From contig DAIQMY010000001.1 in NCBI GenBank assembly GCA_036788695.1, positions 236,134 to 300,133 on the forward strand: 64,000 bases of DNA, read 5' to 3'. The position numbers and the translations under genes were made by a program. The DNA is from Candidatus Levyibacteriota bacterium (GTDB taxonomy: Bacteria > Patescibacteriota > Microgenomatia > Levybacterales > GWA1-39-11). Of this stretch, positions 13,747-59,243 are shown one piece after another. Under the pieces are notes generated by a model that was given only the letters and a program-made list of their open reading frames with translations, did not search any database and was not told where the DNA came from. Within the stretch, counting starts at the first letter, position 1. The number at the start of each line of letters is the position of its first letter.

Positions 13747-14153
13747 TAAGAGTCAGAGAATTAGATTCCCAAGCTATTGCTTTCCCTCGTTATAAACATC
13801 TAATATGTATACATATGGGTATTCTGTCCTATCCTCTTTTGGTGGTTTTGTTTTGGTATAAAGAAGGTATATTTTATATCTTGTTGTATTTCCGTTCGTT
13901 TGACGACTACTGCATACGACTACTCTCATTGCATGGATTATTCTCAAGCTATTTTAAGCCGCTTAAAAACGAGTACAGAAAGAATCTTATTTTGTTTTCA
14001 ATACTTTTTGGGGTGATTGTCAAAACATGTTTAATTGCCATATCTCTCCTTCTATTGTTTTTCATTTTACTTTTTGAGGGACTATTGCTCCTCCTCTATA
14101 TTCTTTTTCCAATTCTGCCTTTATTTATTCTATTTTTATCTAAATATATATGA
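13737..14153 (+). CDS. Hypothetical small hydrophobic protein; may be spurious AT-rich translation
   Basis: A 138-aa ORF in an otherwise ~400-bp gap that overlaps the downstream Hsp100 paralog start as ATGA. Its composition is dominated by F/I/L from AT-rich DNA. Confidence 0.2.
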
Positions 14154-16528
14154 GTCTTATGAAAAATCTTGATCTGTTTAGCTTGTATGTTTTTTATAAT
14201 AATATATTCGTAAAAACCTTTCGTTTTTTAATACTTTTTTTATTAACGATTGCCTTGTTCTACGTAATAAGTGATTTATATTTGTTTAGAATAATTCTTA
14301 GTTTTTATATTGTATTTCTTGTAAATGAAATTTTTATTCATTTTAAGATTAATAAATCCCATCCTTTCAACACAGTAATGATAAGTAGCGACTTGCCTGA
14401 GAAGGCAGTACTGCTGAACGTAAGATATTTGATTTGGTCAAAAAGTAATAATGCTTTTCTTGAGAAATTAATAAAGCAGAAAGATGTTCTATTCTTTATT
14501 ACAAAAATCGACGGATTTAAGGTGTCTTCTGTTGAATTCAATATGACTGGGTTACTTAACAAAGCATCTTCGCTTGCGCAAGCCTGCAAGGGGACATACA
14601 TAACTGCCGCTGATATTTTTGCAGCATATCTTCTTATAACTGAAAACGAAAGCCATCTTTTGGATCAAAAAGAGTTAACAGAGAACGATATTTTGGAAAT
14701 ACTTTTATGGAGTAGGGAAAAATATAATTTTGATAAGGTAAAAGATTTTACGATGCATTTTACAGGAGCGGGTGTTTTTGATTTTTTTATCTACGGTTGG
14801 AATACTCAATTAAAAGAATACTCACTTGATTTAACGTATAGCGTACTTGGGAAAAATATGGCACCTGTTGTAGGGAGAGAAAAAGAGTTTTCTCAAATGG
14901 TGGGAATATTATCAAAAAATTCAATCAATAACATATTAATAATAGGAGAACCTGGTGTTGGAAAATCTTCTCTTGTATCACTTCTGGCATTAGAAGCATA
15001 CCGAAATACGAGATTTATTTTACATAGCACTGTTGTGTATGAGCTTCTTGTTGATAGGCTGCTTGCTGGCGTTTCAGATGCGGGAGAGTTGGAAACGCGC
15101 CTAGGCTTACTACTTTCCGAAATCGAACATATTGGAAATGCTGTACTCTTTATTCAAAACATGGAAAATATCTTTGGAGCTGGAGGGTTTGGTTTTGATA
15201 TGTCGGGAATATTATTTTCCTATTTAAAAAATGGAAAGGTACAGATAATAGGTACAACTACACCGTCATTTTATAAAACTATAATTGAAAAGAAATCAAG
15301 TATTATGAGCTTGTTCGAATTATTAAGGCTAGAGGAACCTGACCGTGATGTCTCACTGCAAATGATTGTGGCCCATGTTGATACTATTGAAAGAGAATAT
15401 CATGTGACCATTTCATATAAAGCAATACATGAGGCATTGGAATTGGCCTCATCATTTCTTCCCGAAACATTTCTTCCTGGGAAAGCAATTATTCTTCTCT
15501 ATGATATTTCGTCGAGGGTTAGGCTTGCGGGTGGAGGTCAAGTTGAGAAGGAGGATGTGGTGAAGTTTATTCAAGAAAAGACAAATATTTTACTTGAAAG
15601 GCCAGATGTAGACGAGAAAAAAGTTTTATTATCTCTAGAGCAAGAATTGCACAAGAGAATAATAGGGCAAGATGAGGCGGTGACTGCAATTTCAAAAGCA
15701 ATAAGAAGGCTCAGGAGTGGTTTTTCTCAGAGTAAACGTCCAATTTCAACTTTTCTCTTTTTAGGTCCTACGGGAGTCGGAAAAACGGAAACAGCAAAGG
15801 CACTATCTCAAATATACTTTGGGGATGAGGCAAATATGATCAGACTTGACATGAGTGAGTATCAGACACAAAATGAGGTGGAAAGATTGTTAGGCGGTGT
15901 TCCTGGAGGGATAGAAATAGAAAACTCATTACCTGAGCAGGTTAGGCTTCATCCTTTTTCACTAATACTATTAGACGAATTTGAAAAGGCACATCCGCAT
16001 ATATTAGATATTTTTCTACAGGTTTTTGAAGATGGTCGACTTACGGATAATAGTGGTAAAACGGTTTCATTTAAAAATACTATTATTATCGCAACAAGCA
16101 ACGCGGGCTCAGAGTCAATTCGTGAGATGATGCATGAAGGGAAAGACCCATTTCTTGCGAAAGACGTTTTAGTAGAGGGATTACTTAGGGAAGGAGTTTT
16201 TAAGCCAGAACTTTTAAATAGGTTTGATGATGTGATTATTTTTACCCCACTTTCTGTTTTTGAAGCGACTGAAATCGCGAAGTTGATCTTGGCATTATCT
16301 TTGAAGTCATTAGAGGATGAACAGATTTTTATAGGATTTGACGACAAGGTTGTAAGTAAAATAGTGCACGATTCATTTGATGAAGAGGCTGGTGCTAGAA
16401 ATATGAGAAGATATGTAGGGTCGACTATTGAGGACTATATATCAAAGCTTATACTGGAAGACAAGTTGCAAAAAGGAGCACATGTAACTTTAACTGTCGA
16501 CGAGACCAACAATTTTATATTACAATAA
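14150..16528 (+). CDS. Membrane-anchored Hsp100/Clp paralog with inactivated D1 (pseudo-ATPase) and intact D2
   Basis: The N-terminal ~70 aa are hydrophobic (2 TM), followed by a Clp_N-like domain. D1 keeps a Walker A (GEPGVGKSS), but its Walker B is VLFIQNMENIF versus ILFIDEIHTLIG in the upstream paralog, so DE has become QN, and its arginine finger ERRFQ has become MSLFE. D2 is intact (FLGPTGVGKTETAK, LILLDEFEKAHPHI, GARNMRR, LLNRFDDVIIF). An alternative start lies at Met77 (~14378). Confidence 0.7.
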   Translation: MSLMKNLDLFSLYVFYNNIFVKTFRFLILFLLTIALFYVISDLYLFRIILSFYIVFLVNEIFIHFKINKSHPFNTVMISSDLPEKAVLLNVRYLIWSKSNNAFLEKLIKQKDVLFFITKIDGFKVSSVEFNMTGLLNKASSLAQACKGTYITAADIFAAYLLITENESHLLDQKELTENDILEILLWSREKYNFDKVKDFTMHFTGAGVFDFFIYGWNTQLKEYSLDLTYSVLGKNMAPVVGREKEFSQMVGILSKNSINNILIIGEPGVGKSSLVSLLALEAYRNTRFILHSTVVYELLVDRLLAGVSDAGELETRLGLLLSEIEHIGNAVLFIQNMENIFGAGGFGFDMSGILFSYLKNGKVQIIGTTTPSFYKTIIEKKSSIMSLFELLRLEEPDRDVSLQMIVAHVDTIEREYHVTISYKAIHEALELASSFLPETFLPGKAIILLYDISSRVRLAGGGQVEKEDVVKFIQEKTNILLERPDVDEKKVLLSLEQELHKRIIGQDEAVTAISKAIRRLRSGFSQSKRPISTFLFLGPTGVGKTETAKALSQIYFGDEANMIRLDMSEYQTQNEVERLLGGVPGGIEIENSLPEQVRLHPFSLILLDEFEKAHPHILDIFLQVFEDGRLTDNSGKTVSFKNTIIIATSNAGSESIREMMHEGKDPFLAKDVLVEGLLREGVFKPELLNRFDDVIIFTPLSVFEATEIAKLILALSLKSLEDEQIFIGFDDKVVSKIVHDSFDEEAGARNMRRYVGSTIEDYISKLILEDKLQKGAHVTLTVDETNNFILQ

Positions 16529-17540: not shown

Positions 17541-19613
17541 TTATAATAAGAAAGACTTTAATAGTCGTAGTCTGGTATAGAATGGTAGAGCTTTTATAAA
17601 AATGGCTCTCACAAGAGCCCTTCGTTTAGTAGCTCTTATTCCAATAAATATAGCTAGGAAAGTCATTATTAGATAATATACCCATAAATCATTTCTATAG
17701 TTATCCCCTTTTTCCATATATGCTCCAGCAATTTTAATTTCTTTCTTGCTACCCGTCTTGTTTCCGGTTTTTGTAGTTGCAGCCAATACTTTTCCATTTC
17801 CCTTAGAAGATACCATAAAATAACTTTCCGCCGTGGCTTCAACTACTGTATCTTTCCCTGTAGTGCCAGTTACATAGGAGAGCGCAGTATAATGTCCCGC
17901 AGGTGCATTATTTGTAAGAACTAACCCGGTTGTTAAGCGTTTTGTTTTTTGAGCTTCGATATCTTCAAGATCAAATGATGGTCCCCCCATAAATTCTCCA
18001 TCTTTGTAGAGCCCTATTAACAATTTTGCTCCATATATTTTTCCTGTTCCGTTATTTTTTGTGTCTACAAAAAATGTTACAGTATCTCCAGGATTTACAA
18101 ACTCTCCCACATTATTTTTATTTGTAACCGTAAGTTTTCCTCCGGATTCTGGATCCTTTATTTTTTCTTGACTATCACCATTTGATATTTGTTCTAATGA
18201 ATGTTCTTCTTGTGTTACTTCTGTAATAAATTTACTTGCGCCACCGATACTTCCTGACCAGTTTCCAAAAACGTTAATAAAAGCAAAAAAACCATTTGTT
18301 TTGAAAAAATTTGAGTTGATAAAGTTAATCAGTGAAACTGCAGAGTATGCATTTCCGGTTTGTATAAGTCCATCATTTCCATGAATAATGTTGGTCCCGG
18401 TATCTGCCTTTGTTTTAACGGTGTTTTTTACAATAGCTGTGTTCTCAGTTATAAGAGCAGTATCACAATCACAGTCATTATTATTATTTGAGAGGCTTAA
18501 GGTGTCTCCTCCATTTTGAGGTTCAAAACTATCCCACCCCAAAAAATTACCAGTCCATTTTCCTAGAACGTTTATAAATAGCTTTTGGAATAGTGCTCCG
18601 ACAGCATTTGTATTTACCATATCTACAATGTTTATAATGCTGTGTGAGGTGCCGGTCTTGATCATTGAAGAAGAGCTAGCTATATCTATGCTGTTGTTCC
18701 CGGTATTCGTATCAGCTGTTACATCATTTTCTATAAGTGCAATATTTTTCATGGTTGCAGATGAACCACAGGATGCACATTCTGTTTCTTCATGAAAGTC
18801 AGGAAGAATTATATTGCCTGAAAAGTCTCCAAATATATTAATGGTGACTATATGGATAACAGAGTCGACAACAGTGAAATTTGCTTTATTTACGAGTGAG
18901 ACTACAGAGTATGCATCCCCTGTTTTGATAAGGGCGTTTTCTCCTTCAGCTATTTCATTTCTTCCTGTAGACGCGGTGGCAAATACATCATTGTCAAGAT
19001 ACACATAGTTTTTTGCATCAGTTACAGAAACGTTAACAATCGGGTTTGTATTTTTATCCTGAGAGATGATCGTGTAGGCAAGATTAAATGGTGTAGACAA
19101 ATCTATACTTTCTGCATCGTCTACAAAGATATTAATAGTTTGATTTATCACCTGTGAATTAATTGAATTTGTGTTTACTGTGTTGTCTACAGACACGAGC
19201 GTTGTAGAATCGCCCGTTGTAATAGAAGAGCTTGAGTTCTGCTGTGCAGGTGAGGAGCTCTGAGGAGTTTCGTGAGAGTTACTTGAAGGTAAGTTAGATG
19301 AAGCCTCTTCAGCGTCCGGAGGAGTAAGCTCAGCAGAGGTGGTTGAAATATTTTCTCCTGTGTTAGATGCTCCCGCAGTTGTATCATGCGCTTCAGTTGT
19401 ATTTGCTTGTGTTGTGTTTTCTGCGGCTTCACTTGGAGATGGAGTGGGGGTAGTAGTTTGGGTTGGTGTTGGATCAGCTTGCTCTATTACAGTAGGCGTA
19501 GGGGTATCAGTTGGTGTTTCATCAAGCGCGTAGACTGTGAATGGCGAGATAGAATTGACTCCAATAACAAGAAATATAATAAAAAGTGCGAAATATCTTT
19601 TGAATCCTGCCAT
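17541..19613 (-). CDS. Cell-surface protein: signal peptide, T/P-rich linker, three internal ~65-aa repeats each preceded by a C-x-C motif, C-terminal TM anchor
   Basis: Has a signal (FALFIIFLVIGVNSISPFTVYA) and a PT-rich linker. The repeats centre on IKTGDAYSVVSLVNKAN / IKTGTSHSIINIVDMVN / IQTGNAYSAVSLINFIN, and each ends in INxFGxWSGN. CASCGSS and DCDCDT precede repeats 2 and 3. The C-terminus has a TM (LWVYYLIMTFLAIFIGI) and a basic tail. Confidence 0.5.
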   Translation of the reverse strand: MAGFKRYFALFIIFLVIGVNSISPFTVYALDETPTDTPTPTVIEQADPTPTQTTTPTPSPSEAAENTTQANTTEAHDTTAGASNTGENISTTSAELTPPDAEEASSNLPSSNSHETPQSSSPAQQNSSSSITTGDSTTLVSVDNTVNTNSINSQVINQTINIFVDDAESIDLSTPFNLAYTIISQDKNTNPIVNVSVTDAKNYVYLDNDVFATASTGRNEIAEGENALIKTGDAYSVVSLVNKANFTVVDSVIHIVTINIFGDFSGNIILPDFHEETECASCGSSATMKNIALIENDVTADTNTGNNSIDIASSSSMIKTGTSHSIINIVDMVNTNAVGALFQKLFINVLGKWTGNFLGWDSFEPQNGGDTLSLSNNNNDCDCDTALITENTAIVKNTVKTKADTGTNIIHGNDGLIQTGNAYSAVSLINFINSNFFKTNGFFAFINVFGNWSGSIGGASKFITEVTQEEHSLEQISNGDSQEKIKDPESGGKLTVTNKNNVGEFVNPGDTVTFFVDTKNNGTGKIYGAKLLIGLYKDGEFMGGPSFDLEDIEAQKTKRLTTGLVLTNNAPAGHYTALSYVTGTTGKDTVVEATAESYFMVSSKGNGKVLAATTKTGNKTGSKKEIKIAGAYMEKGDNYRNDLWVYYLIMTFLAIFIGIRATKRRALVRAIFIKALPFYTRLRLLKSFLL

Positions 19614-40998: not shown

Positions 40999-42087
40999 AT
41001 GGATAATTTTAATAAAGTAAAAAGTGAATTAGTGCAGCTCATTTCAGAAAACACAGGTATTGGTATTGTAGTGTCAAGCAATCAGACTTTAGATGTGCTT
41101 GCAGCCGCAATATCACTACACCTTATGCTTCAGGACTCAGGAAAAAACTCTCAGGTAGCATCTCAAAAAAACCCAACTGTTGAGCACTCATTTCTAGTCG
41201 GAATAGATCAGCTAAAAAATAGTTTTTCTGGTTTGACACGCACACTTACTGTTTCTTTTCCATATCATGATGGGGATATAGAAAAGGTGTCATATAACAT
41301 AGAAGGTGATAGGCTTAACGTGAACTTATTCGCGGAAGAACAAGGGATAGGGTTTACTGAAAAAGATATAAAATACATAAGACAAGGGTCATCACCTAAT
41401 TTAATAATTACAATAGGTGTGCTTCAGGCTTCAGAGATAGATGGTTTGGTGGGACAGGAAACAAAAATTATCAATATTGATAATTCGGTACATAATTCGA
41501 TGTTTGGACAGGTGAATATAGTTGATGCGTCTTACTCCTCACTTTCTGAATTAGTAGCAAAAATAGCAAGTGAATTACAATTTGTCATTGAATTTGATGT
41601 AGCCCAAAACTTATTAGACGGTATAGCTTCCGCAACAAATAATTTCATGTCTCCTAAAACGTCTCCATTGGCATTTGAAATGGCTGGATTTTTAATGCAA
41701 AAAGGGGCAATCCGAAAAGACATGAAAGAGTCGCGAATACAAAGAGACGAATCCCTTGAGCTGTTGGGTAAAAAAACAGATAATATAACTCGACAGATTC
41801 CAAGAGATGGAGGATTTAATAAAACAATCAGCTCAGCACCCCAAGATAGGCAAATTGACGGGATGCAGAATATGGCTCAGGAAGAATTTGGAAATGAAGA
41901 AGTATCAAGTCAAATAAATGCGCCAAAGAGACAATCAGTGCAATCTTCAAGTCATCCAAGTGTTCCGCAGCCAGAACCATTTACCCTAGAGGAAAACACA
42001 TCAGTATTAGACAATATACCTTCAGAAGATGAAGCTCCATCTGATTGGTTTACACCCAAGGTATTTAAATCAACGAAGGGAAATTAA
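40999..42087 (+). CDS. DHH-family (NrnA-like) protein with catalytic motifs substituted (likely pseudo-enzyme)
   Basis: Motif I IVVSSNQTLDVLAAAISL compares with the consensus VxHHNPDGDAxGS. Motif III INIDNSVHNSMFG compares with VIDHH...FG. It has a DHHA1-like C-terminus and a Q/S-rich tail, and sits where nrnA sits in nusA-infB operons. Confidence 0.4.
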   Translation: MDNFNKVKSELVQLISENTGIGIVVSSNQTLDVLAAAISLHLMLQDSGKNSQVASQKNPTVEHSFLVGIDQLKNSFSGLTRTLTVSFPYHDGDIEKVSYNIEGDRLNVNLFAEEQGIGFTEKDIKYIRQGSSPNLIITIGVLQASEIDGLVGQETKIINIDNSVHNSMFGQVNIVDASYSSLSELVAKIASELQFVIEFDVAQNLLDGIASATNNFMSPKTSPLAFEMAGFLMQKGAIRKDMKESRIQRDESLELLGKKTDNITRQIPRDGGFNKTISSAPQDRQIDGMQNMAQEEFGNEEVSSQINAPKRQSVQSSSHPSVPQPEPFTLEENTSVLDNIPSEDEAPSDWFTPKVFKSTKGN

Positions 42088-42567: not shown

Positions 42568-44925
42568 TTGACGACAAAAAAAATGAAAAAATTTAAAAAA
42601 TCTTTCGATATAAATGGTAGAACCATTACCTTAGAAACTGGACTTCTTGCAGAGCAGACGACAGCAGCTGTTTTGGGGCGCATGGGTGACACTATGGTTT
42701 TAACCACTGTTGTTATGGGTGCAAATGATACTACGCTAGACTATTTTCCATTAAGTGTTGAATATGTTGAAAGACTTTACGCGGGGGGTCGTATAAAAGG
42801 AAGCCGTTGGGTGAAGCGTGAAGGTCGTCCTTCTGATGATGCGATTCTTACTGCACGTCTTATTGACCGTTCAATTCGTCCCTTATTTCCTAAAGAACTA
42901 AAGAAAGACGTTCAAGTGGTAATAACAGTTTTGTCAGTTGATGGTGAACATGATCCTGATGTTCTTTCAGCAATTACTACTTCGGCAGCTCTTTCTGTTT
43001 CAAAGATTCCCTGGAATGGTCCTATTGGTACATCTCGAGTAGGCTTGATTCGTCAAAATGGAAATGAAGAGCTAGTAATAAACCCACATGTTACAGAATA
43101 TCCATTTGCAGATATGGATTTGATTGTTTCATCTCTCAATAACCGTTCTATTATGATAGAGGCTGGTGCAAAACAGGTTGAGGAGAAATACTTTATTGAC
43201 GGTATTAAGAAAGCAAAAGAAGCAAATGCAAAAATAATAGACTTTATAAATGAAATGGTTACGGAAATAGGTGAAAAGAAAGTACAACTCTCAAAAGATG
43301 AAAAATTGGAAGAAGTGAAGCTACTCGTTGAAAAATCATACAAAGATAAAATGCATAAGCTCATTGCAGATGGAGTTACGCGTGAAGTAGGAGGAGAATT
43401 AGGAAAAATAGCTGAAGAGATTTACGAAGCTGAGAAAGCGAAGGCTGACAGGGATGGAGAGGCGATGGATCTTGATAAGAAAAAGATTGCAACAGGCGTA
43501 GACTATGTATTTAAAAAAACGGTTCGTGAGATGATAGTTCGTGAAGGAAAACGCCCAGATGGACGTGGTCTCAAAGAGATCAGAAAAATTTCAGCAGAGG
43601 TTGGTATCTTGCCAAGAACCCATGGTTCAGCAGTCTTTACCAGAGGAGAAACCCAAGTTTTGTCTGTTGCAACATTAGGATCGTCATCTATGGAACAATT
43701 ACTTGAAGGTCCTGAAGGTGAAGAAAAAAAGAGCTATATGCATCACTACTCTTTTCCTCCATACTCTGTAGGAGAAACAGGACGTATGGGGAGTCCCAAT
43801 AGACGCGAGATAGGACACGGAGCCCTTGCGGAACGAGCTTTAGAGGCAGTTTTGCCTGAATCAACCGTATTTCCTTATGCAATTCGTGTCGTATCAGAAG
43901 TTATGAGTTCAAACGGTTCTACTTCTCAAGCTTCTGTATGTGGCTCTACCTTAGCGCTTATGGATGCAGGGGTACCTTTGCTTGCACCAGTTGGAGGAAT
44001 TGCAATTGGGTTAATGACGTTGGATGATAAGTCCATAGTTTTAACAGACATTATAGGTCTTGAGGATTTTGCAGGAGATATGGATTTTAAAGTTGCTGGA
44101 ACTACAAAGGGAATTACTGCAATTCAAATGGATACAAAAATTGCTGGTCTTACAGATGAGGTAGTTGAGGAGACACTTGAAGACGCGAAAAATGCAAGAA
44201 CTTCCGTGCTTGAATCAATGATGAGCGTAATGCCTGAAGCAAGAAAAGATGTTTCTAAGTATGCACCAAAGATTAAGACTATTAAAATTAATCCGGAAAA
44301 AATCGGAGAAGTTATAGGTTCAGGAGGAAAAACTATACGAAATATTTCAGCATCAACAGGTGCGACTGTAGACGTTGAGGAGGATGGGACAGTATCAGTT
44401 GCGGCAGTAGATGAGGAAGCAGTTGAGAAAGCAGCGCATTGGATTGATCTTATAACTCGGGAGCTTACCCCGGGGGAAATTTTTGACGGAAAGGTAAAGA
44501 GAGTGGTTGGATTTGGTGCTTTTGTAGAAATTGTTCCAGGGAAAGAAGGTCTTGTACATGTTTCTGAAATGTCTCCTGAATATGTTGCAGATCCAAATGA
44601 TGTAGTAAAGCTTGGACAGGAAGTGAAGGTAAGAGTGAAAGAAGTTGATGAACATGGAAGAATTAACCTATCAATGCTCTTTGGAGAAGACGCTGAAAAA
44701 GCGAAAGAAGCGGGTAAAAAAGATGATGGACGCGGAGGAGACAGAGGTTCACGAGATGATAAGCCTAGATTCGAGAGTCGTGAACGACGTAGCTTTGGAC
44801 ATGGTGGGGCAGGAAGACGCCCAAGCAGCAGTAGGGGTCAACGCCCTGATGCGGGTTCACAAGGTGGAGGAATCAGAAATGAATTTGGAAGCACATACTC
44901 TGGTGCGCGTCGTCCACGAAGATAA
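42568..44925 (+). CDS. pnp: Polynucleotide phosphorylase (PNPase) with R/G-rich C-terminal tail
   Basis: Two RNase PH domains, a KH domain (IGEVIGSGGKTIR), an S1 domain, and an N-terminal FDINGRTITLETGLLAEQ. It sits immediately after rpsO. Confidence 0.9.
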   Translation: MTTKKMKKFKKSFDINGRTITLETGLLAEQTTAAVLGRMGDTMVLTTVVMGANDTTLDYFPLSVEYVERLYAGGRIKGSRWVKREGRPSDDAILTARLIDRSIRPLFPKELKKDVQVVITVLSVDGEHDPDVLSAITTSAALSVSKIPWNGPIGTSRVGLIRQNGNEELVINPHVTEYPFADMDLIVSSLNNRSIMIEAGAKQVEEKYFIDGIKKAKEANAKIIDFINEMVTEIGEKKVQLSKDEKLEEVKLLVEKSYKDKMHKLIADGVTREVGGELGKIAEEIYEAEKAKADRDGEAMDLDKKKIATGVDYVFKKTVREMIVREGKRPDGRGLKEIRKISAEVGILPRTHGSAVFTRGETQVLSVATLGSSSMEQLLEGPEGEEKKSYMHHYSFPPYSVGETGRMGSPNRREIGHGALAERALEAVLPESTVFPYAIRVVSEVMSSNGSTSQASVCGSTLALMDAGVPLLAPVGGIAIGLMTLDDKSIVLTDIIGLEDFAGDMDFKVAGTTKGITAIQMDTKIAGLTDEVVEETLEDAKNARTSVLESMMSVMPEARKDVSKYAPKIKTIKINPEKIGEVIGSGGKTIRNISASTGATVDVEEDGTVSVAAVDEEAVEKAAHWIDLITRELTPGEIFDGKVKRVVGFGAFVEIVPGKEGLVHVSEMSPEYVADPNDVVKLGQEVKVRVKEVDEHGRINLSMLFGEDAEKAKEAGKKDDGRGGDRGSRDDKPRFESRERRSFGHGGAGRRPSSSRGQRPDAGSQGGGIRNEFGSTYSGARRPRR

Positions 44926-45066
44926 GGCACTATCTTCATATTTATTATTCTAGGGAATCTGAAACATTCACTCAATCGGACTTTTTAGAGGTAATCAATA
45001 CGGTTAAACTCCAATCAGATTTTTATTTTTCATGATAATATTTTCTATTCTTGCTATACTAATTCT

Positions 45067-46233
45067 ATGATTGATAAAGGGTATCCCCTTAACTTAAGTG
45101 GATTAAATACGAATAACTCAAATAGTTCCAATTCAGCACAGGATTCAATTCCATCACAAAATAATCCCGGTTCATTGGATAGCTTTCCTCAAATAACAAA
45201 ACTTGAGCAATTGGTTTTAAAAGCTTCTCTTCCTGTGGATTTGCATGAAAAATCTATGGGAATGATTCAGCGTTTAAAACTTATTAAGCATGAGTCGAGT
45301 TTCTTTATGGAACTTGATCAGATTGGACGATACATAGAATGGATAACTGCTCTTCCTTGGAATTTCGAAACAAAAGATATCCTTGACTTGAATCATGCAA
45401 GACAGGTCTTGGAAAAGAATCATTATGGTTTGCTTCAGGTGAAAGAACAGATTCTCCAATATCTATCCGTAATGATTATTAAAGCTTCTCAGGGAAGCTC
45501 AAAGGACCATTTTTCAAGAGCGCCAATTATTTCTCTTGTTGGACTTGCGGGAGTAGGAAAAACAACAATTGCGTACTCTATAGCCGAAGCACTAGGAAGA
45601 CGCATTGAGCGTATCCCATTTGGAGGGATGGGGGGTGCAGCTACTCTAAGAGGTCAGTCTCGATCTTCACCGGATGCTGAACCAGGAGCAGTAATGAAGG
45701 CGTTACGTCGTTCAGGGACAAACAATCCTGTTATTTTACTGGATGAGATAGACAGAGTATCTGAGGCAGCAAGAGGAGATATAATGGGGGTGTTGGTTGA
45801 ATTATTAGATCCAGAGCAAAATAGAGCATTTACTGATCACTACATAGATTACCCCTTTAATTTAGGTAACGTTTTATTTGTTGCAACGAGTAATAATACA
45901 AAAGATATCTCTACTGCAGTTTTGGATAGACTTGAAGTGATTCAAATGCCTTCTTATGCGGACGCAGAAAAAATTACGATTGCGAAGAACTATTTACTGC
46001 CTAAAATTCTTGCTGAATCAGGATTTACAGCAAATTCGGTGATAGTAACTGACGCGGTTTGGGCAGAAATTGTGCGACCCCTCGGATATGATCCGGGAAT
46101 TCGTTCTCTTGCTCGTGCGGTTCAGGATATGGTAAGAAAAGTTGCACTGTTTCAATTAGATGGAAAGCTGCCTAAAGGGCAACCGTTTAATTTAACAGAT
46201 CAGAATCTACGTCAATTTATCCCTCAATGGTAG
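45067..46233 (+). CDS. Lon-like AAA+ ATPase module without LAN or peptidase domains
   Basis: Aligns with the Lon pre-AAA helix and AAA+ module, including ALPWNF...HYGLLQVKEQILQYLSV, GLAGVGKTTIAYSIAEALGRRIERIPFGGMGGAATLRGQSRS, VILLDEIDRVSEAARGDIMGVLVELLDPEQNRAFTDHY and LFVATSNN. The ORF ends right after the AAA+ lid, and the next gene is RNase J. Confidence 0.65.
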   Translation: MIDKGYPLNLSGLNTNNSNSSNSAQDSIPSQNNPGSLDSFPQITKLEQLVLKASLPVDLHEKSMGMIQRLKLIKHESSFFMELDQIGRYIEWITALPWNFETKDILDLNHARQVLEKNHYGLLQVKEQILQYLSVMIIKASQGSSKDHFSRAPIISLVGLAGVGKTTIAYSIAEALGRRIERIPFGGMGGAATLRGQSRSSPDAEPGAVMKALRRSGTNNPVILLDEIDRVSEAARGDIMGVLVELLDPEQNRAFTDHYIDYPFNLGNVLFVATSNNTKDISTAVLDRLEVIQMPSYADAEKITIAKNYLLPKILAESGFTANSVIVTDAVWAEIVRPLGYDPGIRSLARAVQDMVRKVALFQLDGKLPKGQPFNLTDQNLRQFIPQW

Positions 46234-46351: not shown

Positions 46352-48010
46352 ATGAATGAAATAACATTTATCTCAATCGGTGGAATTGGTGATGTCACAA
46401 AAAATATGTACGCATATATATATGGGGACGAGATTTTACTGGTGGATTGTGGAATCGGATTTGCAGATAGTAATCTTCCCGGAGTTGATCTTTTAATCCC
46501 TGATATCTCTTATCTTAAGGAAGCCATTAAAAATGGGAAAAAAATTGTAGGACTTCTCTTATCTCATGGACACGAAGACCATATTGGGGCTCTTCCTTTT
46601 ATTTTGCCTCAACTTCCACAATTCCCTGTATATGGGTCAACCCTGACGGCTGCACTCGCAAACGATAAACTTTCAGAATTTGGGGTTGATAGAAGGGTTA
46701 CAGAAATACAGTTTTCTGATCCAGCGTTAAAACTTGGTGTTTTTTCAGCATCTTTTATACGAATGACGCATTCAATAATTGATGCGTCCAATATTTTAAT
46801 AGGTACACCTATTGGTAATTTTTATCACGGTTCTGATTTTAAATTTGATTTTACGCCAGTTGATGGAAAGTTATCAGAAGTGAATAAGATCGCGGCAGCT
46901 GGAGATTCAGGTATTTTATGTCTTATGTCAGACTGTCTAGGGGCAGAAAAGCATGGACATTCTCGATCTGAACAGAAGATAAAAGATTCATTTGAGCTCG
47001 CATTTAGAGAAACGAAAGGAAAAGTTTTTGTGACCACATACTCCTCTAATATCTCCCGTCTCAACCAGGCTATCGAAGTAGCTATTTCTCAGGGAAGAAA
47101 GGTTTGCTTTATGGGGAGATCACTCCTGAAAACTCGTGATGTTGGTAGGACACTTAATTATATGAAGTTTCCAAAAAAATTTGAAATACGTCCCCACGAA
47201 GTAGCAAAATATAAGCCATCAGAAGTAATGATTCTGGTAGCAGGCTCTCAGGCTCAGGAAAGTTCTGCGTTATCGAGGATTACAAATAATGACGATAGAG
47301 ATTTACGCATAGAAAAAGGAGATACCGTTATATTTTCAGCAGATCCAATTCCTGGCAACGAAGAGAACATTTATGCTTTAGTAGATAATCTCTCACGACG
47401 CGGAGCGCGTGTAATTTATTCTGAAATAACAGATGAATTTCATGTATCGGGACATGGATCTGAAAATGACTTAAAACTTTTAATTTCTCTTACAAATCCA
47501 CAATATTTTGTCCCGATTGGTGGCACATTTCGACAAATGGCAGCTTACAGGGAAATTGTAAGAGCGATGGGATACAAGGATAACAGTGCTTTTTTAATTG
47601 ACGCAGGTCAGGAGTTACATTTTTCAAAAGATGGAGTACGATTAGGACGAAAAGTATCAAACGCAACTATTTTTGTGGATCAAATGACAGGAGAGGAAGT
47701 AGAAAATTACATAGTAATAGATAGGGTAAGAATTGCCAAGGAAGGAATAATTATAATAATGGTTGAATTGGAAGCTTCAACTGGACAAATTACTGCAAAC
47801 CCGGAAATTTTAACAAAGGGTTTTGTTTACGAAAAGAAAGAAGAATTTGCTAAAGTATTGGGAGACAGTCTGAATCGCAGATTTGCAAATAAAAAAGACC
47901 CCGTCTCCTCAGTTGGCTATTATAAAAAAGCTATTGAAAAAGCTGCTGAAGAGATACTCTATAGAGAAGGACGCTCACCATTGGTTGTCCCCGTGATCAT
48001 AGAGGTGTAA
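46352..48010 (+). CDS. rnj: Ribonuclease J (metallo-beta-lactamase/beta-CASP)
   Basis: LLSHGHEDHIGALP (HxHxDH) and beta-CASP motifs, at 552 aa. Confidence 0.85.
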   Translation: MNEITFISIGGIGDVTKNMYAYIYGDEILLVDCGIGFADSNLPGVDLLIPDISYLKEAIKNGKKIVGLLLSHGHEDHIGALPFILPQLPQFPVYGSTLTAALANDKLSEFGVDRRVTEIQFSDPALKLGVFSASFIRMTHSIIDASNILIGTPIGNFYHGSDFKFDFTPVDGKLSEVNKIAAAGDSGILCLMSDCLGAEKHGHSRSEQKIKDSFELAFRETKGKVFVTTYSSNISRLNQAIEVAISQGRKVCFMGRSLLKTRDVGRTLNYMKFPKKFEIRPHEVAKYKPSEVMILVAGSQAQESSALSRITNNDDRDLRIEKGDTVIFSADPIPGNEENIYALVDNLSRRGARVIYSEITDEFHVSGHGSENDLKLLISLTNPQYFVPIGGTFRQMAAYREIVRAMGYKDNSAFLIDAGQELHFSKDGVRLGRKVSNATIFVDQMTGEEVENYIVIDRVRIAKEGIIIIMVELEASTGQITANPEILTKGFVYEKKEEFAKVLGDSLNRRFANKKDPVSSVGYYKKAIEKAAEEILYREGRSPLVVPVIIEV

Positions 48011-53493: not shown

Positions 53494-55077
53494 ATGAGAT
53501 CGGGAACAGTAGGGACAGTAGGAGCAGTAGGGGTGGGGGGACGCGCCTCTTTTGGCTTACAAGCATCTTCAAAGAGCCCTGGGATATCGTTTTCGCCTGA
53601 AGCTCGTACAGGAGGATCTGCAAGCTCATTTTCTTCAAGAAATCTTTCCCTTTTTAATCGTGAGGCAATTTCTCCTAAGTCATATTCTATTTTTAATATA
53701 AACCATGGGAAAGAAAGATCGCCAAAATTTGCTACAGCACCATCGCTACGTTTACAGAAAGATACAAAGGGTGTTTCTGTTGGGACTGTAAAAGAAAGAA
53801 GTGTCTCAGGTATAGCAGATGCTAAAAAAAACGGTAACCACACGAAGCCATTTTCCTTTTCCATGAATCATCAAAATGCTTATGAGAGTAAACCTAAGAC
53901 AGTAAACTCTCACTTACCTCAAAAAGAAAAATCAATAGTAAAGACAAGAAAAAATACTTTTACTGTTTTTGAGAATGGCTATTTTGGTGTGGCTCATAGG
54001 AAGGTGGATTTGAGCGTAGGCGTTACGAACAAAATAGATCGAGCGAAAGGAGTTAGGTGTCCAGGTAATGAAGTAGTATTATGGCAGAAGTCCCAGGATA
54101 AACGGGTAGTTTATAAATCTTTTGATGTGCGACACATCCATAAAGTTGCTCGTAAACCCCTTGAGCGGAATAATGTAAAAGCATATGAGAATTTTGTTAA
54201 AGAAAAACAAAGGCAAAATACAAATACAAAAAATAAGGATGTGGTTAGGACGAAAAACGCAGAAGTAGATTATGACGTTCATATTCAAAAGCAAAAAACA
54301 TTGAAAAGGAGGAAATTGTCACAAATGATTAGTATTCATCCATCTATTAGACCAGATGTTGCGGCTTTAATACGAAGAGATATTAAAGACGCAAAAAACA
54401 TGGTCCCACTCATAACCACTGCTAGAAAAGTTTCCTATGAGACAGCACAAAAAGAAGCACTTTCTTTATTGTTAAAAAAACACGAAGGAAGACTTATAAT
54501 TCATAAAGAGAAGCATCAAATTCAGGAAAAAGGAAAAGAAAAAAAGGATCGTGAATTCTCTCGTACTCCCATAATGAAATCAGAAGATAAAATATATTTT
54601 GAAAGAGATGAAGGAGCAAACAGTGCGAGAGAGGATAGGGTAGTTGAAGCATTTGATCATCTTTTAAAAAATAGAGGAGAAGATAAGGTTATTCCAAAGG
54701 GGTCTGAAGTTGCAGGCATGATCGGGCAATTAGACCAAGAGGTGAAAAGTGAAATAAAGATGGGCACATCTGGGGACGGTTCGTTTAAGGCGTTTGTTTT
54801 TGAGATCGCAAGTCTCGGGGAGTTGAAAGATGCGCGTGCGTTAAGAGAGATTACAAGACAAATTATCACAAAAATTACGGCAGTTAAGTTAACCTCAAAA
54901 ATATCCTATCTAAGCGCTTCATATGATGACGCGCGTAGAGTATATGAGACTGCTCTTCAGGGTGTAAAGGGTTTCTTTAAGGAAAAAGATTTTCTATTGG
55001 GTGAATTTAAGACGAGGGTTGATGGAGTGATACTATATGAAGCACGTGAGAAGGGCATAGCATCCGAAGTAGGATAG
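53494..55077 (+). CDS. Lysine-rich hypothetical protein (527 aa), no recognised domain
   Basis: A long ORF in a low-GC genome. It is basic with a K/E-rich middle and a more globular C-terminal third. The true start is uncertain (internal Mets). The antisense ORF 53454..53864 is judged a shadow. Confidence 0.4.
   Translation: MRSGTVGTVGAVGVGGRASFGLQASSKSPGISFSPEARTGGSASSFSSRNLSLFNREAISPKSYSIFNINHGKERSPKFATAPSLRLQKDTKGVSVGTVKERSVSGIADAKKNGNHTKPFSFSMNHQNAYESKPKTVNSHLPQKEKSIVKTRKNTFTVFENGYFGVAHRKVDLSVGVTNKIDRAKGVRCPGNEVVLWQKSQDKRVVYKSFDVRHIHKVARKPLERNNVKAYENFVKEKQRQNTNTKNKDVVRTKNAEVDYDVHIQKQKTLKRRKLSQMISIHPSIRPDVAALIRRDIKDAKNMVPLITTARKVSYETAQKEALSLLLKKHEGRLIIHKEKHQIQEKGKEKKDREFSRTPIMKSEDKIYFERDEGANSAREDRVVEAFDHLLKNRGEDKVIPKGSEVAGMIGQLDQEVKSEIKMGTSGDGSFKAFVFEIASLGELKDARALREITRQIITKITAVKLTSKISYLSASYDDARRVYETALQGVKGFFKEKDFLLGEFKTRVDGVILYEAREKGIASEVG
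53505..53540. repeat. 9-bp tandem microrepeat (ACAGTAGG-like x3-4) at the 5' end of the 527-aa ORF
   Basis: aacagtagg gacagtagg agcagtagg ggtgggggg, encoding TVGTVGAVGVGG. Confidence 0.6.
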
Positions 55078-55108: not shown

Positions 55109-56965
55109 TTGAGCACAGTGCAAGCACATCAAATTGTCGAAAGATATATTACGTTTTTTGAAAAAAAAGGACACAGACGAATAGAAAATTCTTCTCTTGT
55201 TCCCCTTAACGACCCCACTACTCTGTTTACATCTTCGGGCATGCAACCTCTTGTGCCCTATTTGCTCGGAGAGATACACCCAGCAGGGAAAAGATTAGTA
55301 AATGTTCAAAATTCCTTTAGGGCGCAAGATATTGATGAAATTGGTGATAACAGACACACGACATTTTTTAGAATGCTTGGAAACTGGTCATTAGGAGATT
55401 ACTTTAAAGAGGATCAAATCCCATGGTTTTTTGAGTTTTTGATAAGAGATTTACGGCTTGATCCAAAGAGATTATATGTAACAGTTTTTGAGGGTTCTGA
55501 GGCTATTCCTGAAGATAAGGATGCAATACGCATTTGGAAAGAGGAATTTAAAAAAGTAGGAATTGACGCTGAAGTTGGAAGTCGAATATTTACATATGGA
55601 GTTTTGAAGAATTGGTGGAGCAGATCAGGCTCGCCAGATAAGATGCCGGTAGGAGAACCGGGAGGACCGGATACAGAAGTATTTTATGATTTTGGAACTG
55701 AACATGACACGAGTTTTGGCGAGAAATGTCATGTGAATTGTGATTGCGGACGGTATTTGGAGATAGGAAATTCTGTTTTTATGCAATACATAAAGGTTAT
55801 TGATGGATTTCAGGAGTTGCCTCAAAAAAACGTAGATTTTGGTGGAGGTTTGGAGAGGCTAGTTGCGGTAACGGAAGGAAAAACTGATATATTTGAAACT
55901 TCTCTTTTTACTCCAATAATAGGCGCAATAGAAAAAGTATCTGGTAAAAATTATGAAACAAACAAGCGCGAGATGAGGATAGTTGCTGATCATATAACTG
56001 CTGCAATTTTTATCTCCTCAAATAACGTAACTCCGTCTAATAAGGAACAGGGTTATGTGCTGCGTCGGTTGATTAGACGTGCTGTTGATAGTTTGCATCT
56101 TTTAGGAACTCAAGATGTTGAGCCAATTATTCATGCAATTGTTGCTTCTTATAAAGATACAGACCCGCAATTAGTAGAAAAATATGAGCTTGTTAAAAAC
56201 TCAATACTTCAGGAAATAGGGTCCTACAAAAAGGCGCTAGATGGCGGAAAGAGGATGATAGAAAAAGAGCTATCAAGTGGGGAAAAGGTAGGGGATGAGT
56301 TATTTGGAGAAATTGAGATTTCAGCGGAGGTGGCATTTAAGGCAATTACTTCTTTTGGTTTGGGGCCTACACAGTTAAGAGGTTTAGGGTATACATTTGA
56401 TGCTCAGAAGCTAGCAGATCAAATAAAGGCACACCAGAACCTTTCGCGTAAGGGTTCTTCTCAAAAATTTTCGGGAGGACTGGCTGATAATTCGGAAAAG
56501 ACAATTATGGGGCACACTGCAACTCACCTAATGCATCAAGCTTTGAGAGATATGTTTGGTATGGAGCTTCACCAAACTGGGAGTAACATAACAAGCGAAA
56601 GGGTAAGATTTGATTTTAATTTTGACCGCAAGTTAACAGTAGATGAGATAAAAAGTCTTGAAGACACGGTTAATCAAAAGATAGAAGAGAACTTGCCAGT
56701 TCACTTTGAATTAATGCCGGTATCCTACGCGAAAGCATTAGGTGCAATAGGATTATTTGATGAAAAATATGCAAGCAATGTAAAAGTATATTTTATCGGA
56801 GGAGAAGAGAAAAATCTTGAGAGTCAACGTTTAAAGGATTGGTATTCGGCAGAGTTCTGCGGTGGTCCTCATGTAAATTTTACAGGAGAGGTGAAAAGGT
56901 TTAGAATAATAAAGCAAGAATCTTTAGGACGTGATCAGCAAAGATTATACTCTGTTGTTGGATAA
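55109..56965 (+). CDS. alaS: Alanine--tRNA ligase, truncated form (catalytic + editing domains, no C-Ala domain)
   Basis: The N-terminus (FFEKKGHRRIENSSLVPLNDPTTLFTSSGMQ) and FRMLGNWSLGDYFK match AlaRS. The editing motifs HTATHLMHQAL and CGGPHV are present. It is 618 aa against a typical ~870. Confidence 0.9.
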   Translation: MSTVQAHQIVERYITFFEKKGHRRIENSSLVPLNDPTTLFTSSGMQPLVPYLLGEIHPAGKRLVNVQNSFRAQDIDEIGDNRHTTFFRMLGNWSLGDYFKEDQIPWFFEFLIRDLRLDPKRLYVTVFEGSEAIPEDKDAIRIWKEEFKKVGIDAEVGSRIFTYGVLKNWWSRSGSPDKMPVGEPGGPDTEVFYDFGTEHDTSFGEKCHVNCDCGRYLEIGNSVFMQYIKVIDGFQELPQKNVDFGGGLERLVAVTEGKTDIFETSLFTPIIGAIEKVSGKNYETNKREMRIVADHITAAIFISSNNVTPSNKEQGYVLRRLIRRAVDSLHLLGTQDVEPIIHAIVASYKDTDPQLVEKYELVKNSILQEIGSYKKALDGGKRMIEKELSSGEKVGDELFGEIEISAEVAFKAITSFGLGPTQLRGLGYTFDAQKLADQIKAHQNLSRKGSSQKFSGGLADNSEKTIMGHTATHLMHQALRDMFGMELHQTGSNITSERVRFDFNFDRKLTVDEIKSLEDTVNQKIEENLPVHFELMPVSYAKALGAIGLFDEKYASNVKVYFIGGEEKNLESQRLKDWYSAEFCGGPHVNFTGEVKRFRIIKQESLGRDQQRLYSVVG

Positions 56966-59243
56966 ATTTATGAAGCTGCCCTTCTTAAGTAAAAAAAAAG
57001 AAGATAAAGAATACTTTTTAGCCTTACTGCTTTCCTCAAATGAAGTAAGAAGTATTCTATTTGAGAAAACAGGTGAGAATCTTTCTGTTTTAGGATCTCA
57101 CAGTGAAGATTTTGCTGAACAGCTAGACACTCTTTCAAAGGATCGTTTAATAGAGCTTTCAGACATGGTGATTTCCGAGGCAGAACGTAAATTACCTGAG
57201 GGATCAAGTCTTCAAAAAACAATCTTTGCGGTTCCAGATAGATGGGTTGTAAACGGAAAGATTATTCAGGAACATCTCCCAAAGTTAAAAGAACTATGCG
57301 ATGCCTTGCAGCTTAAGGCTGTTGGGTTTATTGTTTCTATGGAAGCAATAATTGCCTATCTTCATAAAAAAGAAGGAGTTGCTGTCACCGCGATTTTTAT
57401 AGAAGTAGGTAAAAAACATGTGACCTTGAGTCTTGTAAAAAACGGGAACATATTAAGCGTATCGGAGGAGGAGATAGAAAATGATACAACTGTTCCTGTT
57501 GAAAGAATATTGTCTACACAGGAAGAGCTTGAAGTATTACCTGCAAAAATAATAATACTTCCCTTTGAGCATGCTAAAAAGATCCAACAGGAATTTCTTT
57601 CTCATTCATGGAGTAAGGGTATTCAATTTTTACATATTCCACAAGTTGAAGTCCTTCCATCAGAGGCAGAGGCGCAGGCAGTTATTTCAGGAGTTGCAGC
57701 ACAGATGGGTTTCAGCACGCTTCCCCAAGTTAGTCTCCAAAAGCTTGAAAAATCACCTGAAGAGGTAGTAGTTGCTGTCCATGAGCAGGAAGAAAAAAAA
57801 ACGATTGAAAAAAAAGAAATAGAAGACGGACAGAGTGAATCGGATAAAGAATCTATGGCGGAAGAAAAGGGGAGCACGGTAGATGCTGAATCTGTTGGAT
57901 TTTTTAAAGATGTAGATGTAGCAAAAAAACAGAATGAGCAACATGAGGTGGAAAATATTCAACCTGTTTCAGCAACTGACGAAAAAAATACAAAAATGGA
58001 AGATTCTAGTAGTGTGAATCATCCGACCCATGCATTAGCTATTGATAATTTACCATCATTACCTCACGTTTCATTCCCAGGTGTAAAATTTAAAATTCCA
58101 AGCTTTTCCTTGCGGGGAAAGTCGTTGGTTTGGTACCCTGTTCTGGGAGTATTTTTATTTATTCTTTTTATAATTTCCTACTATTTTTTCTTTGAAAAAG
58201 CACAAGTTATTTTGGTTCTCAGTAAGAAAGATATAAGTAAGAATGTATCAGTGACCTTCTCGCAGGAAAAACAAACATCTGCGCAGGATTCGGTGGTGCA
58301 TATAGAAGAGCTTGCGGTGCAAGTAGATGGAAAAGAAGAGCAAAGTGCTACCGGTAAAAAAGAAACTGGAGATAAAGCCAAGGGAGAGGTAACGCTTTAC
58401 AATAAGACTGAAGGATCAAAGACATTTGAGAAGGGAGTAGTTGTTATAGGATCAAACAATCTGGAATTTAGTTTATTGGAAGATGTTAAAATTGCATCAA
58501 CCAGTTCTTTCTCGACTACTTTCAGCAATGCCAAAGGAAAGGTTGAGGCAGTAAAGTTTGGTAAAGAATATAACCTTCCCTCAGGAACAAATTTTCAAAT
58601 AAAAGGACAATCGACATCTGATTTTTTTGGCAAAAATGATTCTGCCTTTTCTGGGGGAACAAAGAAAGAAATTACTGTTGTATCAGAGGATGATATTTCC
58701 TCGCTTCAATCAAAAATTGTATCAACTCTTGCAAAAAAGGCACAGAATGATATATCTTCAAAAATAGGATCAGATTCGCAAATCCTGGCAACACCGCTTG
58801 ATTTCTCATTTGATGAGAAATCATTTTCAAAAAAAGCAGGCGATGCCGCAGAAGCGGTAAGTATTACAGCAACTATAACCTACAAGATAGGATCTTATAA
58901 AAAATCCGATCTTGTTACACTTGCAAAAGATATCACAGGGAAGGATGCTCCTGCAAGCTATATATATTCAGGAAAGGACTCCGAAATTAAGGTAGAGGAT
59001 ATTGTGAATGATGAATCTGAGTTTACTGGAAAAATTGTTTTTTCATCTGTTTTTTTGCCGCAAGTAAATGAGGATGGAATTGGGAAGAAAGTATCCGGGA
59101 AAAGTGAGCAGAAGGCACAGGAATTAATTGAATCTGATGGAGTTTCAGATAGTACGATTGTTTTTACAAGAAGTCTTCCGTTTTTCCCCCATATTCTTCC
59201 ATTTAATAAAAAAAATATAGAGGTAATCACTCAAACACAATGA
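56931..59243 (+). CDS. Bitopic protein: N-terminal degenerate PilM/FtsA-like actin-fold domain, one TM, ~380-aa S/T/K-rich extracytoplasmic domain
   Basis: KTIFAVPDRWV, LQLKAVGFIVSMEAIIAYL and VTAIFIEVGKKHVTLSLVKNGNILSV align with PilM blocks (VVLALPG / LEPVAVDVEAFALYRAL / VAVVDIGAETTELVLL), but the phosphate-binding DxG and DIGxxTT residues are replaced. A TM follows at VWYPVLGVFLFILFIISYYFFF. Confidence 0.4.
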   Translation: MISKDYTLLLDKFMKLPFLSKKKEDKEYFLALLLSSNEVRSILFEKTGENLSVLGSHSEDFAEQLDTLSKDRLIELSDMVISEAERKLPEGSSLQKTIFAVPDRWVVNGKIIQEHLPKLKELCDALQLKAVGFIVSMEAIIAYLHKKEGVAVTAIFIEVGKKHVTLSLVKNGNILSVSEEEIENDTTVPVERILSTQEELEVLPAKIIILPFEHAKKIQQEFLSHSWSKGIQFLHIPQVEVLPSEAEAQAVISGVAAQMGFSTLPQVSLQKLEKSPEEVVVAVHEQEEKKTIEKKEIEDGQSESDKESMAEEKGSTVDAESVGFFKDVDVAKKQNEQHEVENIQPVSATDEKNTKMEDSSSVNHPTHALAIDNLPSLPHVSFPGVKFKIPSFSLRGKSLVWYPVLGVFLFILFIISYYFFFEKAQVILVLSKKDISKNVSVTFSQEKQTSAQDSVVHIEELAVQVDGKEEQSATGKKETGDKAKGEVTLYNKTEGSKTFEKGVVVIGSNNLEFSLLEDVKIASTSSFSTTFSNAKGKVEAVKFGKEYNLPSGTNFQIKGQSTSDFFGKNDSAFSGGTKKEITVVSEDDISSLQSKIVSTLAKKAQNDISSKIGSDSQILATPLDFSFDEKSFSKKAGDAAEAVSITATITYKIGSYKKSDLVTLAKDITGKDAPASYIYSGKDSEIKVEDIVNDESEFTGKIVFSSVFLPQVNEDGIGKKVSGKSEQKAQELIESDGVSDSTIVFTRSLPFFPHILPFNKKNIEVITQTQ

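Follow-up and report, generated by a model that had tools for sequence, protein, structure and literature searches.

The DNA analysed here is a 64,000-nucleotide stretch (the window) of a Candidatus Levyibacteriota genome (GenBank assembly GCA_036788695.1, contig DAIQMY010000001.1, positions 236,134 to 300,133). Its G+C content is 36.8%, and it shares 85-87% DNA identity with Levyibacteriota genomes. At positions 45067-46233 of the + strand, between the genes for PNPase and RNase J, it carries an open reading frame (ORF) that opens with ATG, closes with TAG and encodes a stand-alone ATPase of the LonA type, 388 amino acids (aa) long. The ORF itself, the TIGR00763 profile, the LonA structures of the PDB and an AlphaFold2 model searched with Foldseek support its assignment as a complete gene. 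Lon is the textbook example of a protease driven by ATP, with the motor and the peptidase joined in a single chain. The protein described here is a LonA derivative by descent that has neither the N-terminal LAN domain nor the S16 peptidase domain, and its gene is a real one, widely conserved in Levybacteria and other Microgenomates. Full-text searches of the literature found no description of a stand-alone or protease-less Lon ATPase.

The protein begins with an Asn/Ser-rich low-complexity tail of about 40 aa (45067-45186, on the + strand like all features of the gene), which is predicted to be disordered, with a predicted local distance difference test score (pLDDT) below 50 for aa 1-37. The tail occupies the place of the LAN domain and the long helix in LonA, and it differs in length and sequence among family members. 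It is followed by a helical pre-AAA region (aa 41-145; 45187-45501) comprising the end of the LonA long helix and the three-helix bundle (NTD3H). This region is modelled with a pLDDT of 86-95 and aligns with residues 232-330 of Meiothermus taiwanensis LonA (MtaLonA) and 238-345 of E. coli Lon. In the alignments, its counterpart in the LonA structures and in E. coli Lon lies directly upstream of the AAA+ core. It contains Y89 and W92 (Y294 and W297 of Lon), the HYGL sequence, and the motif NHYGLLQVKEQILQYLSV at aa 118-135. The AAA+ module then shows the Walker A motif GLAGVGKTT (aa 159-167; 45541-45567), a rebuilt pore-loop 1 in which LRGQSRSSPDAEPG stands where LonA has IRGHRRTYIGSMPG (45646-45687), the Walker B motif VILLDEID (aa 222-229; 45730-45753), the sensor-1 sequence ATSNN (aa 273-277; 45883-45897) and the arginine finger R288 (Lon R484; 45928-45930), which acts in trans between subunits. 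The small alpha-helical lid subdomain spans aa ~294-367 (45946-46167) and holds the sensor-2 residue R346 (46102-46104). The Pfam Lon_lid model matches aa 317-367 with E 7e-5 and 22.8 bits, a score below the 27-bit cut-off here and above the cut-off in homologues, and the isolated Lon alpha-domains of PDB entries 1x37 and 1qzm match aa 293-385. The C-terminal tail (46168-46233) runs to NLRQFIPQW immediately before the stop codon. It lies at the lid-to-peptidase linker of LonA, aligned with NLHDYLG of E. coli Lon, and the end of the protein falls at about E. coli Lon residue 575.

Profile, sequence and fold searches all lead to LonA and to no other AAA+ clade. The NCBIfam model TIGR00763 ('lon') matches the protein with E 3.9e-90, confined to profile positions 255-562 of 795. 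The score is 303.4 bits against an equivalog cut-off of 608, and NF008053 gives 233 against 891; the protein is thus below both, and no NCBIfam model matches it at its cut-off. A phmmer search of the PDB sequences returned Lon chains only, with residues 232-562 of MtaLonA at the top (E 4e-74). A profile of 41 family members matched LonA structures at E 3e-90, while the top non-Lon structure, TRIP13, was reached at 5e-4, a value poorer by 86 orders of magnitude. LonB and LonC chains gave no match at E <= 0.01. Pfam finds the AAA domain at E 1e-15 and otherwise only AAA-type domains and Lon_lid. The AlphaFold2 monomer model has a mean pLDDT of 79 and a predicted template modelling score of 0.73, with residues 1-37 disordered, and its top 50 Foldseek matches in the PDB are all Lon. 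The match to E. coli Lon covers residues ~238-575 only, which comprise the three-helix bundle and the AAA+ module. Neither Lon_C (PF05362) nor LAN (PF02190) is matched by Pfam in the 388-aa protein, and a tblastn search with the LAN and S16 domains of E. coli Lon, taken from NC_000913, found no match to either in the 64-kb window. The original prediction, made from the letters of the sequence, had described a Lon-specific AAA+ module with the named Lon motifs and intact ATPase motifs, without LAN or peptidase domain, that stops where the S16 peptidase should start and is followed by an RNase J gene. All of this is borne out.

The residues of the ATPase site are strictly kept. Over 121 aligned family sequences K165, D226, E227, N277 (Lon N473), R288 and R346 are each invariant (121/121), and so is T166 next to the Walker A lysine. 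Conservation extends to Y89 and W92 (120/121) and, in the pre-sensor-1 hairpin, to Y/F259 and D261, which correspond to Lon Y456 and E458. The invariant Walker A and B, sensor-1, arginine finger and sensor-2 residues point to an active ring ATPase. The Walker A motif itself has the family form G-[LVI]-x-G-[VT]-G-K-T, compared with GPPGVGKT in LonA.

Pore-loop 1 is rebuilt. The pair Y398 and I399 of Lon is known to grip the translocating substrate (PMC7239648). The LonA pattern T-Y-[VI]-G-x-[ML]-P-G has become x-x-P-D-A-E-P-G in the stand-alone family. When 69 canonical LonA representatives are taken for comparison and E. coli Lon numbering is used, T397 is T in 69/69 and Y398 is Y in 68/69, and both positions are variable in the stand-alone family; I399 is V, I or L in 68/69 and mostly P in the family (107/121); G400 is G in 66/69 and mostly D in the family; and M402 is M or L in 63/69 and E in the family. 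E205, P206 and G207 are invariant in the alignment of 41 family sequences. Position 398 is F or Y in 59 of the 121 family sequences, and most of them have F or Y at either 397 or 398. The window protein has S201-P202 in place of Y398-I399 and no aromatic residue in pore-loop 1. This double-serine reading is common to the window protein and its three nearest relatives, in independent assemblies, and is one base away from the common F. Among the species at the 80 GTDB loci described below, the aromatic is absent from pore-loop 1 in 17 of the 71 with a readable loop (~24%), that of the window among them. A description in which the pore loop has simply lost its aromatic holds for the window protein and the three relatives, and it was refined to that of a rebuilt loop with a dispensable aromatic.

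The stand-alone architecture is repeated throughout the family. The 120 best homologues, drawn from a search of 5.8 billion proteins, are all 347-477 aa long and contain AAA/Lon_lid, and none has Lon_C or LAN (120/120). They are currently named either 'AAA family ATPase' (in Levybacteria, Woesebacteria and Patescibacteria) or 'ATP-dependent Lon protease'. A count with one genome per GTDB species, using two family-specific peptides as queries, gave at least 440 genomes in which a relative is encoded. The 80 loci that were inspected are the best 80 of these 440, with 53-93% identity to the query, and are titled as Levy-, Gottesman-, Shapiro- and Roizmanbacteria, Microgenomates and Patescibacteria. 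Many of the third-party annotation bins among the 80 are labelled 'uncultured Gammaproteobacteria'; their synteny is unchanged, and the labels were therefore taken as placeholders. Distant representatives of the family are found in Dojkabacteria. Five independent contigs carry the identical protein, and the reading frame ends at a common position in 80/80 loci, at stop codons that differ (TAA in 46, TAG in 23 and TGA in 11). More than 100 columns are invariant in the alignment of 41 family sequences, which are 60-90% identical. No S16 or LAN domain was found by tblastn within 10 kb on either side of the gene in any of the 80 loci, and no fusion to a peptidase occurs among the ~217 family members inspected. 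The terminal W is invariant in the close 41-sequence alignment and present in 58 of the 80 species, the others finishing within a few residues of that point; distant members have disordered tails instead. In the long members P0141, P0133, P0145 and P0166 the extra length consists of Q/P/S/N-rich low-complexity tails. Hidden domains in these N- and C-terminal extensions were considered and rejected, as they have no Pfam match and are low in complexity. Assembly CAZKYX01 holds two stand-alone copies (contigs 37 and 4; loci L049 and L051) with 63% and 61% identity to the query. Both copies have pnp and rnj neighbours. Two related organisms seem to be mixed in this bin, and the copies do not look like true paralogues.

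A neighbour-joining tree was built from 181 Lon AAA+ modules of the exhaustive search, and in it all 17 stand-alone representatives form an exclusive clade. The short protein P0203 is sister to this clade, and its closest relatives beyond P0203 are canonical LonA modules. The same search returned tandem proteins (P0121-P0127, P0129, P0131, P0132, P0134 and others) of 889-1675 aa with two to three Lon-type AAA+ modules, one S16 domain and no LAN. In several of them the pore loop or the Walker B motif of some modules is degenerate. The tandem proteins rank high in the search because scores were summed. P0127 is encoded on a bacterial contig of 283 kb, with housekeeping genes around it. No paper on 'tandem-AAA Lon' was found in the full-text literature. 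An origin of the stand-alone protein as a split-off tier of such a tandem Lon was rejected, because no tandem module falls inside the stand-alone clade. The full-length Lon closest to the query, P0196 (45%), was considered as a Lon of the candidate phyla radiation and set aside because it is phage-encoded. This 718-aa Lon combines AAA+ and S16 domains and has no detectable LAN. Portal, terminase and lysozyme genes lie on its contig, and its gene (L091 10001-12157; L092 4046-6202) directly follows genes for a MoxR-like AAA protein and a VWA-domain protein.

The gene lies in a conserved block of housekeeping genes. Upstream is the PNPase gene pnp (42568-44925, + strand; Pfam RNase_PH twice, KH and S1), whose product has an Arg/Gly-rich basic C-terminal tail, and downstream is the RNase J gene rnj (46352-48010, + strand; Pfam Lactamase_B, RNase_J_b_CASP and RNase_J_C). 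The intergenic gaps are 141 bp after pnp and 118 bp before rnj. The block in the window reads, in order, nusA, infB, an unnamed 362-aa gene, rpsO, pnp, the ATPase gene, rnj, ftsK and an HTH_25 (helix-turn-helix) gene. In most of the 80 loci the genes from infB through the unnamed gene, rpsO, pnp, the ATPase gene, rnj and ftsK to the helix-turn-helix gene are found on one strand. An estimated rnj start follows on the same strand in 73/80 loci, with a median gap of 72 nt; the gap is at most 13 nt in 14 of the 73 and within ~320 nt in 66. These short gaps fit co-transcription, and the ATPase gene is probably co-transcribed with rnj in many genomes. The contexts of distant members are unrelated. 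P0145 lies between a metallophosphatase and an M23 peptidase gene, and P0160 between a deaminase and an AhpC gene, so the linkage to RNA turnover is Microgenomates-wide and not family-wide. The linkage may be simply inherited gene order.

Several features of the neighbouring genes were recorded along the way. The last ~70 aa of the PNPase (44716-44925) form a long Arg/Gly-rich, highly basic and apparently disordered tail (containing GRGGDRGSRDDKPRFESRERRSFGHGGAGRRPSS and, further on, RRPRR). PNPases beside the ATPase gene at ~69 Microgenomates loci nearly all have a basic tail, with 12-24 R/K in the last 70 aa. The 362-aa gene between infB and rpsO (40999-42087, + strand) has no Pfam match in the window; the corresponding gene of another Levybacteria genome matches DHH weakly, and the position of the gene is kept in most of the 80 loci. 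In many bacteria rbfA and truB are found between infB and rpsO. At the Woesebacteria locus of P0060, an ORF without Pfam match lies between pnp and the ATPase gene (L007 6145-6804, 219 aa; L006 3-461). It overlaps the start of the ATPase gene by ~55 nt and may be either a false gene call or an insertion particular to that lineage.

A sigma-70-like match with a TG extension, ATGATA-17-(TG)TATACT, lies upstream of the start codon (45032-45060, + strand). It agrees with the consensus at 9/12 positions and finishes 6 nt 5' of the ATG, which would allow a leaderless or short-leader start. The gene had been credited with its own promoter-like -10 element, TATACT, 11 nt before the ATG. The hexamer is present as part of this match, at 45055-45060, and the separation is 6 nt rather than 11. 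Sigma-70-like matches in the region number 6, against 4.8 +/- 2.5 expected from shuffled sequence. They are no more frequent than in shuffles, and the promoter is therefore to be read as a consensus match only.

Elsewhere in the window, a chaperone cluster encodes DnaK (3091-5022), an 886-aa ClpC/ClpB-like Hsp100 (8395-11055), a subtilase of family S8 (11080-12834) and a 792-aa Hsp100 (14150-16528). The 792-aa Hsp100 has a hydrophobic N-terminus, and its first module is without a canonical Walker B motif in a simple motif scan. The same kind of scan found no obvious ClpP-docking loop of the IGF/VGF type at the expected place in either Hsp100. Four large ORFs of 527-770 aa (6182-8344, + strand; 17541-19613, - strand; 53494-55077, + strand; 56931-59243, + strand) have no Pfam match at E <= 1e-5. 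The 527-aa ORF is also without a Pfam match in an identical Logan contig.

The stand-alone ATPase can be set beside several known systems. It resembles LonA (E. coli Lon, MtaLonA and LONP1) in its three-helix bundle, AAA+ large subdomain and lid, which are collinear at 33-41% identity, and it shares with LonA the Walker A and B motifs, sensor-1, arginine finger, sensor-2, Y259/D261 and Y89/W92. It differs from LonA in lacking LAN, with only the end of the long helix present, in lacking the S16 peptidase, in its x-x-P-D-A-E-P-G pore-loop 1, and in a Walker A motif that reads G-L-x-G where LonA has G-P-P-G. Functionally it falls outside the Lon protease family: it has no S16 or LAN domain, scores below the family cut-off and lacks the Tyr-Ile/Val pore loop. 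ClpX, HslU and Lon belong to the HCLR clade of AAA+ proteins, and with ClpX and HslU the protein has in common a single AAA+ module that has no protease in the same polypeptide. They offer a model for a protease-free Lon module that acts alone or with a partner. The protein differs from them in being collinear with the LonA module, and in NCBIfam no ClpX or HslU family matches at E 0.01, ClpA being the only Clp match (E 5.9e-7). ClpX and HslU retain the aromatic pore loop. LonB has a membrane insertion in its AAA+ module and LonC a degenerate ATPase with a Lon-insertion domain, and both have S16; the stand-alone protein, in contrast, has no large insertions, keeps its ATPase motifs intact and lacks S16. 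LonC is described as a protein that lost ATPase activity and kept chaperone-protease function (PMC3391209, PMC13069640). It is the converse of the stand-alone ATPase, since it kept the peptidase and lost ATPase activity.

A proteolytically inactive S-to-A mutant of yeast Pim1 reportedly supports membrane-complex assembly, an example of useful work by the Lon ATPase in the absence of proteolysis. There the change is an engineered point mutation in a protein that retains every domain, whereas in the stand-alone family the domains are naturally absent. The mode of action of the family would be most like that of a stand-alone unfoldase such as ClpX or HslU, or that of a proteolytically inactive Lon chaperone.

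Four other explanations of the gene have to be weighed. The possibility that it is an artefact, either a full-length lon cut by a frameshift in assembly or annotation or a member of another AAA+ clade, is negligible. The original prediction had named a frameshift that separates the ORF from a downstream peptidase domain as a possible error, and the locus speaks against it: the complete pnp and rnj genes stand only 141 and 118 bp away and leave nothing for a frameshift to fuse, the stop position is equal in all 80 inspected genomes, identical copies of the protein stand on five independent contigs, and the architecture recurs in independent assemblies. As to another clade, the profile, sequence and fold searches gave LonA alone, and the best PADLOC match of the protein is DolB with only 31.9 bits (E 1.9e-8), where Lon scores 303 bits. 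An origin in anti-phage defence (BREX BrxL, Dodola DolB) was likewise rejected, as the PADLOC matches are weak and the context is one of housekeeping genes. A decaying remnant of lon, that is a functionless pseudogene in progress, is very improbable. The absence of two of the three Lon domains, and of the pore-loop aromatic in the window protein, would fit decay, but relatives in at least 440 species with intact frames and equal ends, six catalytic ATPase residues invariant in all 121 sequences, more than 100 invariant columns, and a rebuilt loop that is itself conserved at E205, P206 and G207 all argue for a maintained protein.

The two remaining explanations assign the ATPase a partner. The protein could be one half of a split Lon, whose ring docks on an S16 domain or another self-compartmentalised peptidase encoded elsewhere and feeds it substrates. 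ClpX feeds ClpP and HslU feeds HslV, so AAA+ proteases of the same clade do run as two-gene systems, and the chain ends exactly at the lid-to-peptidase linker of LonA with a C-terminal tail that is conserved among close neighbours. We nevertheless consider a split Lon unlikely. Partners of a split enzyme usually adjoin in at least some genomes, yet no S16 domain was found in the 64-kb window or within 10 kb of the gene in the 80 species, and none of the inspected members is fused to a peptidase. A rebuilt pore-loop 1 that has lost the aromatic in about a quarter of species is unexpected for a translocase that feeds a protease, and the terminal W gives way to disordered tails in distant members. 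The C-terminal Trp was also considered as a docking motif comparable to the tails of HslU or to HbYX; with 58 of 80 species and its absence from distant members, the case for it is weak. Alternatively, the ATPase might be an accessory of RNA turnover that acts specifically on the neighbouring PNPase and RNase J. Its acidic pore loop might, for instance, take hold of the basic Arg/Gly-rich tail of PNPase, and the ATPase would in this way serve the assembly, recycling or regulation of a complex similar to a degradosome. The one-strand order of pnp, the ATPase gene and rnj in most of the 80 species, at 53-93% identity to the query, the short gaps to rnj, the basic tails of the adjoining PNPases and the acidic channel positions D203 and E205 are consistent with such a role. 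On the other hand, the whole block from nusA through infB, rpsO, pnp, the ATPase gene, rnj and ftsK to the helix-turn-helix gene is conserved, so that the linkage may reflect inherited order, and the distant members P0145 and P0160 lie in unrelated contexts. This role seems rather unlikely. The more specific proposal that the acid-lined channel (D203, E205) engages Arg/Gly-rich basic tails such as that of the upstream PNPase, so that the protein would be an ATP-dependent regulator or assembly factor of a PNPase-RNase J complex for RNA degradation instead of an enzyme of protein quality control, is doubtful, and more so than the general one.

We favour, with a moderate degree of confidence, a functional descendant of LonA that serves as a protease-independent, ATP-driven protein remodeller or chaperone. 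Because no protease is present in cis, none was found nearby and pore-loop 1 is rebuilt, a protease-independent remodeller is the most likely function. The protein has lost the LAN substrate-recognition domain and the S16 peptidase of LonA and kept the three-helix bundle and the AAA+ module. The ATPase most likely assembles into a ring, to judge from the invariant arginine finger that acts in trans, and most likely hydrolyses ATP, to judge from the invariant Walker A, Walker B, sensor-1 and sensor-2 residues. Its work would be remodelling or chaperoning instead of that of a processive degradation motor, with a pore-loop 1 in which Pro and Asp replace Ile/Val and Gly, Glu replaces Met/Leu and the aromatic has become dispensable. 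The acidic residues at channel positions suggest that its clients may be basic or disordered proteins. The original prediction had offered two alternatives, a stand-alone unfoldase or remodeller and a split Lon with its protease half elsewhere. The stand-alone alternative is favoured by the architecture conserved across hundreds of species and the lack of S16 in the window and within 10 kb in 80 genomes, while the plain label of unfoldase is weakened by a rebuilt pore-loop 1 without an aromatic.

Several points weigh against a protease-independent remodeller. The AAA+ ring of LonA normally rests on a hexameric peptidase ring, which the stand-alone family lacks. The loss of the aromatic might mean that translocation is weak or absent and that the ATPase acts as a switch or clamp. 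The scan for a peptidase covered the 64-kb window and 10 kb on either side of the gene in 80 loci. An apparent change of M284 to D/E in the three-helix bundle is uncertain, as a 3-residue indel lies beside an invariant Phe pair; the equivalence of this position being uncertain, the evidence for an acidic channel comes mainly from D203 and E205.

A motor-only lineage of Lon would offer a ready-made system in which to ask what the Lon ATPase can do without proteolysis, be it as a chaperone, a remodeller or a switch. It would also allow the importance of the aromatic pore loop to be asked. The label 'ATP-dependent Lon protease' that some family members now carry is misleading, since it wrongly implies a proteolytic capacity in metabolic reconstructions. 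The finding is relevant to protein and RNA quality control in the ultra-small bacteria of the candidate phyla radiation, which have reduced genomes and are hard to study experimentally.

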